A stretch of 24,033 bases of DNA from a virus (lineage: Duplodnaviria; Heunggongvirae; Uroviricota; Caudoviricetes), in the IMG/VR virus record IMGVR_UViG_2690316176_000008; one strand, written 5' to 3'. The translations under genes and the position numbers were made by a program. The notes below the pieces were generated by a model that saw only the letters and a program-made list of their open reading frames with translations, had not been told where the DNA came from and ran no database searches. Shown piece after piece: positions 3,498 through 6,758 of the stretch (the first letter of the stretch is position 1; every line of letters begins with the position of its first letter).

Positions 3498-6400
3498 TCA
3501 GCTGATACTGATCCCTGCCGTGGATTTTTTCATGACCACAACCAGTAAATCACTGATGTACGTTGTCGGCGTCCAGTTGTTCGCACCGGCCGACGACACA
3601 TTAAACGTCAGGGTGACATGACCCCGCCCTGCCGGCATATCTATCACCGATGAGAACACCCGGCTGACATCCGTTGCCGGTTCATGGAAAATCTCAACCC
3701 CGTTCTTCAGCACCTGTAGCTTACAGGTGGAATACCAGTACGACTGCTGATTCGGGCTGTTGAAATTCTGGTGTTTCGTCCCGCGAAACAGCACCGGGGG
3801 AATGATAATCTGCCGGTCGAAGCCATGGTCATCGTAAACTGTGACGGTTACCGTACCGCTGGCATAACTGTTATTCCGGGGAAAGGCTTTCCCCACCGTC
3901 TTCACCAGGTCGCCTTCAATCTGGTTTGCAGACAGTTTCCCTCTGATGACACAGTTCTCGTTAATGGTGACATTATTGAGCGTGCCGGTATTCGCGGTAA
4001 TTGCTCCGCTGATATCCGCGTTCCTTGCCGTCAGCTTTCCTTCCGGCGTCAGGGAAAATGCTGGGGGATTGCCGGACGAGGTGATGCTCACCGCAAACAG
4101 TCGTTTCAGGAACACGTCGTTCATGAACAGCTGATTCCCCTGCGCCACAAATAACGGAGTGCTGTTGCCGCTCTCCGGATTTATCATCGCGATACAGTCA
4201 GCCAGCAGCAGTATGTTGCTCAGTGGCTGGCCATCAGTATCCTCAATCCCTGCACCAATCCCGGCCACATAAGGAATGCCGTTTTTGGTTTTTTGTACTT
4301 TCAGCATGTAGAGTGCAGCCAGGTCATCATTTGTGTCCTTCTGCACGCGCTGTATCTGCTGTATGGTGGCGCTCTGGTTCTCCAGTGTTTTGTTGACCGT
4401 CTGTGTGATTTCATTGCGGGTTTCGGTGATGGTGGTCTTCATCTCCGCCATCTCATCCGCAAGCTGGCTGTTGTCTATCAGCTCCCACAGCCCCTGAGCC
4501 AGATGCAGTTTTCCTATTTTTTCCCGAAACAGCCCCAGATACCCTTCTGCATCATTGCTGGCCCGGCCACTGGCTTCCACAAACGCAGATTTCCCCACCA
4601 GGTTGACGCTGCGCACGTAAAACCAGAAATCCTTCCCGGGCTTAATGTGCGGGCCGGATACACTCCACTGACTGCCGGTCCCCAGATAACGGGCAGAGGT
4701 TTCCACCTGTGCGGTGTCTGCGATTTTTGCCTCCGAAAACCAGAATTCAAACTGTACCGTCGGGTCATACACCGCAAGACGCGGGACCGCTGTTATCTGA
4801 AAATAGCCCGGTGTCAGTTCAATGGTGGCGGGTTTTGCTGGCGCGTTAATCCGGAAGGTGGTGGTGGCCGGTTCGCCCTGCTGGCCATAACTGTTAATTG
4901 CCCTGACTGTCAGGGTGTATTCCCCGAGCGGCAGGCCACTGAAACGGTGCGCCGTGTCTGCGGTGATGGCGGTGGTCACCAGGCGGCTGTTTTCACCGCT
5001 TCCACTGGTCAGGCGCAGACTGAAGCGCACACCCTTCACCACCCGCGGCGTGTCCCATTTCGCCTGTGCCAGATACTGACCGTCAGCCGCGCTCACCTCC
5101 ACCGTCAGGTGCTGCACTGCCGGTGGAATAACGCTGTTCAGGGTGCCTGACTGCGGCTCAAAGCTGGCCCCGTTATCCACGATGGCTTCTTTTTCCGGTA
5201 CGTGCTGCACCGCCGTGATGGCAAAGGTGCCGTCCGTGTTTTCCCGGATGGAGACACAGCGGAACAGGCGACGACGCAGTGACGGCAGGGAGAGCCCCCA
5301 TACACCGTATGTCTCCACACCATCAGGCAGGGTGCTGACCTGTATCCGGTCCGGCGCGGGGTGTGCAGTGATGGCCACGCTCACCGGCTTACCGCTGCCG
5401 TTAATCAGGTTCACCGTGGCGGCACCTGTCTCCGGCAGGGTCACCTCACGGTCCAGTGTCAGGGTGCGGCTGGCGGCATCGATGGACAGGATACGTCCGC
5501 CGGTCAGGGTCCCGGCATAGTCGTTATCACAGATTTCAATAATGTCACCGGGTGTGTGACGCAGCCCCTGTGACCCGAGCGTGAAATCCACCGTCTGCGT
5601 TTCCAGCAGTCCGGTCTTTATCACCCACAGCCCGGCACGGTGGGCCTGACCGCGACTGGTGCAGCCGAACGCATCCATCTTCAGCAGGTTGCGCCCGTAG
5701 CGCAGTATGGCTTCCGGGTCTTCCACCAGTTCCGTGGAGGTCTGCCAGCCGTTCTGCGGGTCGGTGTAATTCACCTCCACCGCCGTGTGGCGGTCCTTCA
5801 GGGCGCTGAAGCTGTAGCGAAACCCCACGCCGTTATCATCCACCACCACATCGCAGTTGGTGTACGGCCACACCACATCCGACGGGCGGTCCTGAACGAA
5901 CGTCAGCGTCTGGCCGTTCCATACCGGCATACAGCGCATCGCCGAGCAGAAATCACTGAGAACGTCCCACGCCTTACGCTGTTGTGACAGGTACGCATTA
6001 AAGGTCATCCGCGGCTCTGTGCCCCCGAAACCATCCGGGACCGTCTGGTCGCAGTACTGCGCAATGGCATACAGCGCCCATTTGTCCACGTCTGCCGCCC
6101 CCAGACGTTTTCCCATGCCGTAGCGCGGGTGAGTCAGCATGTCCCACAGGCACCAGGCCGGGTTGTTGCTGTATGCCGGTTTCAGGCTGCCGTCCCAGAT
6201 GCCGCTGTACGTGCGTTTTTCCGGGTCATAGTTTGACGGCACCTGGATGATGCGACCGCGGATATGGTAGTTCACCGTCATCTGCTGGCCGCCGAACTGC
6301 TCCGCATCCACCTGCAACCCCACAATCGCCGTGTTCGGGTAAACAGCCATTCCGCCATCAACGTGTGTTTTTGCATCTGAGGACATAATCAGAATCACCC

Positions 6401-6707
6401 GACCAACATCCGCAATCTCAACGGATTCCCCTGTTTCACCATCAATGCCACAGAGATGGAGGCAGGTCAGAACTCTGATGCGCGTTAACGCACCGGATGT
6501 ATCCTCACGAACATCATGAGCCGCGGTTTCCCGCTCCCGGATCACCGTATCCCCAACCTGAACATCCTCGCCGGATGACTGTATTTCCTCTTCCCATTCC
6601 GCCACCCGCTGCGCTATCTCTGCGGCACTCCCGGATATATCCGGCTCACGCCCCAGAATCAGGGCCAGTTCATCAAGCCGTTTCAGATTTTGCTCTTTCG
6701 TTGCCAT
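3498..6707 (-). CDS. J: tail tip / host-specificity protein J (C-terminal ~950 aa) fused in frame to an FI-like N-terminal segment
   Basis: From about residue 139 of the track ORF ([22 protein letters not shown]...) to the C-terminus the protein is collinear with lambda J from about residue 265 onward, including [46 protein letters not shown] and the fibronectin-like C-terminal domains. The first ~120 residues from the ATG at 6707 ([41 protein letters not shown]...) resemble lambda FI rather than J. A GGGGG RBS precedes the 6707 ATG. Confidence 0.85.
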
Positions 6708-6719
6708 ATCAGCCCCCTG

Positions 6720-6750
6720 TGAAAAAAGACACGGGGGCATTTCGCCCCCG
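6720..6750 (-). terminator. hairpin plus T-run between E and the FI-like start (possible partial terminator)
   Basis: Stem cgggggc / gcccccg with a 5-nt loop, followed on the minus strand by gtgtcTTTTTT, located between the E stop and the FI-like ATG. Confidence 0.45.
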
Positions 6751-6758
6751 CTCACGGA

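Follow-up and report, generated by a model that had tools for sequence, protein, structure and literature searches.

In a lambda-like prophage of Escherichia coli, one deletion has joined the head gene FI in frame to the distal part of the tail tip gene J. It is very probable that the resulting chimera (FI::J') is a recent chance in-frame scar in a defective prophage, and that the endpoint in J was not chosen at random. The chimera itself is an ordinary scar of decay; the unexpected result is the recurrence of its J endpoint. Indeed, the TA dinucleotide of codon Tyr212 of J is also the endpoint of at least ten other deletions in which the right side of J survives, with different partners, and of at least six in which the left side does. 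All positions refer to the window, i.e. the whole stretch of 24,033 nucleotides that was analyzed (IMG/VR record IMGVR_UViG_2690316176_000008).

Structure of the FI::J' reading frame

FI::J' is a single uninterrupted open reading frame of 1069 codons plus stop on the minus strand (3498..6707), in which Pfam and alignments show FI followed by J, as the initial annotation had proposed. A program-made list of reading frames placed the start at an upstream GTG (6755); FI orthologues favour the ATG at 6707, which is separated from the stop codon of the major capsid gene E (6759..7787, minus strand; Phage_cap_E) by a spacer of 51 nt. The chimera therefore lies directly downstream of E with the same gap as in relatives, and it has no FII neighbour because FII is deleted.

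The FI-derived portion (6339..6707, minus strand) comprises codons 1-123/124, rather than the 130 residues first estimated, and has lost only the final residue and the stop. It was identical to the annotated gpFI of the closest intact prophage, L148 of strain Z1323HEC0108 (99.4-99.9% identical to the window), with 0 mismatches over 368 nt (100% identity). The Packaging_FI domain (PF14000) matched residues 3-120 of the chimera with 54 bits, against a cut-off of 27. Lambda FI itself gave a weak BLASTP match to residues 3-47 (38% identity over 45 amino acids, E 3e-5). The N-terminus was also assessed as a possible J-family variant and is true FI: the first 123 residues are an orthologue of lambda FI, the DNA-packaging chaperone.

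The J-derived portion (3498..6341, minus strand) consists of J codons 212-1158 plus stop. These 947 codons, 82% of J, agree with the 950 or so residues initially counted, although the J sequence begins at Tyr212, whichever of the lambda and EHEC numberings is used, and not at about residue 265 as then supposed. Chimera residues 123-1068 align colinearly with residues 212-1131 of the lambda tail tip attachment protein J (BLASTP, 63% identity), and all five C-terminal J domains are kept in the order of intact J (Phage-tail_3, Ig_J, Ig_J_second, Phage_Tail_Tip and Ig_GpJ_C; Pfam). The FNIII-A_GpJ domain, found by the same Pfam analysis at residues 86-207 of intact J, is absent from the chimera. 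Compared to the intact J of L148, the retained part is 99.4-99.6% identical and contains no stops; ten codons differ, seven synonymously and three not.

A single 8,765-bp deletion joins FI to J

Three blocks of the window align colinearly with L148. Positions 1114-6341 correspond to L148 17617-22844 (99.4% identity), 6340-9752 to 31610-35021 (99.9%) and 9751-13480 to 39113-42842 (100%). Between E and the retained J, one clean gap was observed relative to both L148 (8,765 bp) and the intact prophage L002 of E. coli O103:H2 12009 (9,333 bp, L002 carrying an extra sodC), which supports the single deletion proposed in the initial annotation. The genes lost are FII, Z, U, V, G, T, H, M, L, K and I, together with J codons 1-211. 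Alignments to intact relatives revealed none of the tail assembly genes H, M, L, K and I between E and J'.

The junction lies at 6340..6341 (minus strand), inside the flagged range of 6300-6755. On the sense strand it reads ...GGAATGGCTGTTTA followed by CCCGAACACGG. In a three-way alignment, intact FI reads ...GGCTGTTTA followed by TGCGTGA, intact J reads ...CAGTGCTA followed by CCCGAAC, and the window reads ...GGCTGTTTA followed by CCCGAAC. The sole overlap of the two parents is thus the TA common to FI codon 123 (TAT) and J codon 212 (TAC), and the BLAST blocks on either side of the junction likewise overlap by these 2 nt. Illegitimate recombination would, in one event, have joined the two TA dinucleotides and dropped 8.8 kb, with the head-tail joining gene FII, all tail shaft, tape-measure and tip-assembly genes and J codons 1-211. 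The reading frame was kept because both TAs open a tyrosine codon, which would be expected as a roughly one-in-three outcome.

A second deletion and the state of the prophage

A second deletion of 4,091 bp, absent from the initial annotation, was found 3.4 kb upstream of the FI/J junction. At 9751..9752 (minus strand), nu1 is joined at about codon 23 to the portal gene, of which only the terminal 29 nt remain; the rest of portal, W, terminase A and most of nu1 are lost. The microhomology here is AA/GAA, not TA, and this deletion is independent of the FI/J deletion. The terminase, portal, head and tail modules are consequently incomplete, as A, W, B, most of nu1 and FII to I are missing. Therefore, the prophage can neither package DNA nor build a tail.

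The gene content that is kept includes C, D, E, FI::J', the lysis genes, Q, RusA, a copy of IS200C and three tRNAs. Also retained are lom downstream of J' (2807..3430; Ail_Lom), two tail-fibre genes (1429..2748 and 1158..1427) and nleB2, which encodes a T3SS effector (1..981), all on the minus strand. The element is a defective lambda-like E. coli prophage that retains its cargo (lom, tail fibre and nleB2).

Several other features of the window were recorded. IS200C (17260-18008; tnpA 17381-17890, minus strand; STnc490 RNA 17849-17972) lies between the late region and Q, in the same position as in the intact relative NZ_CP148374. Just downstream of Q (18927-19322), positions 18699-18899 gave Rfam matches to C4 antisense RNA, its a1/b1 target and isrK, adjoined by an ORF6N-domain gene (18084-18644); we take this region to be, perhaps, a P1/P7-style antisense-controlled module within a lambdoid prophage. 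An STnc100 sRNA (15558-15748) is located upstream of a SASA-family esterase gene (13482-15335), as are three tRNA genes within 15558-16074. The latter are Arg-tct, Arg-tcg and one with a CAT anticodon, called Met here and Ile in the annotated relative.

The TA of J Tyr212 is a recurrent deletion endpoint

In the finished chromosome L001 (NZ_CP148445; joint at 6541-6543), J is cut at the identical nucleotide and joined, out of frame, to the end of FII. Further Tyr212 joints were found in L005 (~10552), L006 (~200), L009, L053, L058, L095, L112, L129, L131, L138, L140, L143, L145 and L146. A first protein search, with the FI part of the chimera plus J 212-331 as query, returned TerL-J and L-J fusions that both begin at Tyr212 (P0030 and P0116), and other fusions beginning at J residues 57, 171, 256 and 259. 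Site-anchored scans of IMG/VR added six more partners: Nu1-158, portal-184, TerL-349, Rz-69, an early-left gene near xis and a gene of the nin/hok region.

Mirror products were also detected, in which J 1-212, ending ...GTGCTA, is joined to tfa (three sites), stf (two sites), lom or distal J. In a second protein search, with J 1-212, 5 of 15 left-retaining fusions ended exactly at Tyr212 with different partner sites, and three more ended within 3 residues of it. TA was present at every Tyr212 joint, often as TAC. Each of these events is a direct deletion; the smallest span roughly 2 kb, and gene order suggests that the largest exceed 30 kb. No inserts were found at the joints and no inversions were seen. 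Searching a plasmid collection yielded almost only intact J, the annotation of the Rac prophage of K-12 contains no Tyr212 joint, and a word search of the literature brought up nothing relevant on a hot spot of deletions in J.

One of these loci, L143 (GCA_002520155.1 NOPN01000021.1), is a DLP12-like cryptic prophage located by appY/ompT, with an in-frame J(1-212)-Lom fusion. Thus, cryptic prophages that are old and widely inherited can also have joints at the Tyr212 TA. The same locus has a 227-amino-acid open reading frame with a Lambda_tail_I domain directly after Nu1.

A second recurrent endpoint was observed in lambda-type J alleles just before GAGGGGAAT (Glu56). Its partners are ParB, E, the protease C and L, and its joints show 0-2 nt of microhomology (L140 at ~nt 970, L141 at ~nt 3380, P0050, P0185, P0186 and P0187). 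In L140, a J 56-212 fragment is bounded by both recurrent endpoints.

Strength of the hot spot

Site-anchored scans detect only joints at the exact position, so that they show the diversity of partners and not enrichment. Less biased evidence comes from L001, from the two protein searches and from samples of J copies. With the anchor set 23 nt rightward of the site, 107 of 120 J copies had an intact N-terminus, 11 ran off their contigs and two were truncated. Both truncated copies break at the TA, one of them being the window's own strain. Among 138 J copies anchored on the left, none broke at the site and two broke elsewhere (J 357 and 609). The Tyr212 site is thus strongly over-represented among J breaks, yet it is not the sole break point. 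An origin of the shared endpoint by nested deletions was rejected, as there are too many different partners on both sides.

Should the Tyr212 breakpoint hold up, prophage decay would be partly channelled by a fragile or targeted site, as opposed to random deletion plus selection. It would also provide a defined sequence on which to assay the enzymology of illegitimate recombination in E. coli.

Possible cause of the recurrent endpoint

The Tyr212 TA lies four residues past the end of the FNIII-A domain, within a 60-nt block (J nt 588-647; L148 ~22833-22892; retained part in the window ~6329-6341). This block is near-identical in lambda and EHEC alleles, synonymous positions included, while its flanks are only 75-80% identical between alleles. 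Variation in the block is confined to the three or four bases left of the TA. Directly left of the TA, KQCY (CAGTGCTA) is replaced by KQGY (CAGGGATA or CAGGGCTA) in a common J allele; KQGY-type alleles are present in L132, L136, L137, L145-L147 and P0145, and some alleles have AGC (Ser) there.

The deleted-side flanks of the partners resemble the J flank, with matches at 40 of 96 positions where about 26 are expected, and the flank of the lom partner matches at 8-9 of 12. This similarity is in keeping with a DNA end, or a stalled 3' terminus, that formed at the TA and annealed, and less so with a conservative recombinase. Such an end or stalled terminus would arise at the TA and then rejoin or re-prime by microhomology, the joints having TA or TAC as their core and loosely similar flanks.

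The deletion may instead, though this is doubtful, be the work of a site-specific agent at the J TA and not of random illegitimate recombination. The agent might be a lost mobile element with TA duplication, leaving adjacent deletions of the IEE or transposase type; a nicking or 2-nt-staggered nuclease or recombinase; or a homing-type endonuclease targeting the 60-nt block. Such an agent would explain why a single fixed endpoint is combined with many partners to its left and right, why TA recurs at each joint, and why the TA lies in a block shared by lambda and EHEC J. The second recurrent endpoint at Glu56 points the same way. Moreover, the insertion-sequence excision enhancer (IEE) is documented to give IS-anchored deletions of similar shape, joined through microhomology. 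However, IMG/VR scans anchored on either flank gave deletions or intact J only, and about 20 joints contained no IS or other insert at the TA. Nor was any unusual structure or motif seen at the J site: as DNA, its 141 nt fold no better than shuffled sequences (z = -0.26), with no hairpin or cruciform, no Rfam match was obtained, and inspection by eye found no recombinase, invertase, att, cos, Chi or dif-like motif and no dyad symmetry. The lack of inversions, and flank similarity that favours annealing over a conservative recombinase, weigh against it as well.

Individual candidates were rejected. A 'GTTA' target motif was apparent in the first four joints and was lost when more were added, TA alone being constant. 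IS200C is present at the same place in an intact relative, and the J site is without the hairpin that such transposases use. The lambda hot spot of IS30 lies at 33.2-33.5 kb, outside J.

We propose only tentatively that lambda-type tail-tip genes have, at the Tyr212 TA and perhaps also before Glu56, a true preferred site of breakage or recombination. An unrecognised nuclease or recombinase, or a homing element, might act there, or replication might stall there within the 60-nt block. If true, this site would repeatedly set off leftward deletions that remove the tail module, or rightward deletions that remove the receptor-binding and fibre module, and would so shape lambdoid decay.

Distribution of the junction

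The exact chimeric protein was found in one NCBI contig, the draft CXZH01000030.1 (GCA_001277735.1, 41.8 kb), where the same gene is called and the prophage adjoins potAB, pepT and roxA. The junction is also present in one IMG/VR contig that is 100% identical over 13.6 kb and presumably represents the same strain. When 5,426 complete E. coli genomes were probed with 200 nt from across the junction, no match spanned it. The FI/J junction is private to one strain.

Chance scar or retained function

The deletion is recent, because both flanks are almost identical (99.4-99.9%) to intact phages. Among the DNA-detected deletions that end at the same J nucleotide, 2 of 7 are in frame, and the in-frame state of the chimera agrees with this roughly one-in-three rate. 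These counts, the private junction and the second inactivating deletion fit the chance scar suggested in the initial annotation.

Expression of the chimera was considered from the surrounding sequence. No sigma-70-like promoter was found on the coding strand ahead of it, and the 51-nt spacer between E and FI contains a strong terminator-like hairpin with a T-run (6731..6751, minus strand), conserved in intact relatives and putatively functional. Expression would thus require Q-dependent, antiterminated late transcription. The chimera cannot act as a tail tip, since the J N-terminus (FNIII-A) and the tail, portal and terminase genes are missing, and we infer that its product is most likely inert.

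The initial annotation had also raised the possibility that the J region is retained for another use, for which no supporting evidence was found; J' in particular bears no mark of special selection. Such a use, as a surface or secreted adhesin, as a decoy against superinfecting phages or as a part for the tails of co-resident prophages, appears very unlikely. The 947 intact J codons, with seven synonymous and three non-synonymous differences from the nearest intact J, would suit it, as would the in-frame fusion to FI's own translation start and the lom, tail-fibre and effector cargo still present downstream. However, with flanks so close to those of intact phages the event is too young for selection to be read, and the 7:3 synonymous ratio is therefore uninformative. 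Moreover, the junction is confined to one strain, most sister events that end at this nucleotide of J are out of frame, J' is without the N-terminal region of intact J, and no promoter-like site precedes the chimera.

An assembly artefact is extremely unlikely: the source is a 41.8-kb draft contig and these near-identical lambdoid segments reach 15-18 copies per E. coli genome, but the two sides have only 2 nt in common, which permits no assembler overlap, both deletions fit coherently into a single decayed prophage, and the finished chromosome L001 has a junction at the same J nucleotide.

Altogether, a chance in-frame scar remains the preferred reading of FI::J'. By itself the chimera carries little weight; it records how the effector-carrying prophage of one strain was disabled.

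Comparison with known systems

Relative to lambda FI and J, neither partner in the chimera is complete as a working unit, J residues 1-211 being missing. The recurrent endpoint can be compared with deletions anchored at defined sites. Int-promoted lambda deletions end at att, and other deletions anchor at the nick sites of rolling-circle origins. Unlike in these systems and in IEE-anchored deletions, nothing that looks like an att site, an origin, an IS or a recombinase target can be made out at the J TA, and the comparison is no more than an analogy. As in those systems, the J TA combines one invariant endpoint, many partners on two sides and a very short core.

The defective lambdoid prophages of EHEC, EPEC and K-12 (Sp/CP-933, DLP12, Rac and Qin) decay via internal deletions, pseudogenes and fusions. 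The prophage described here resembles these elements, with morphogenesis genes lost and cargo retained, joints of short microhomology and several independent deletions in one element. It differs from other decayed lambdoid prophages in its joint of FI to J212, which is private, in frame, and keeps nearly all of FI together with 82% of J.
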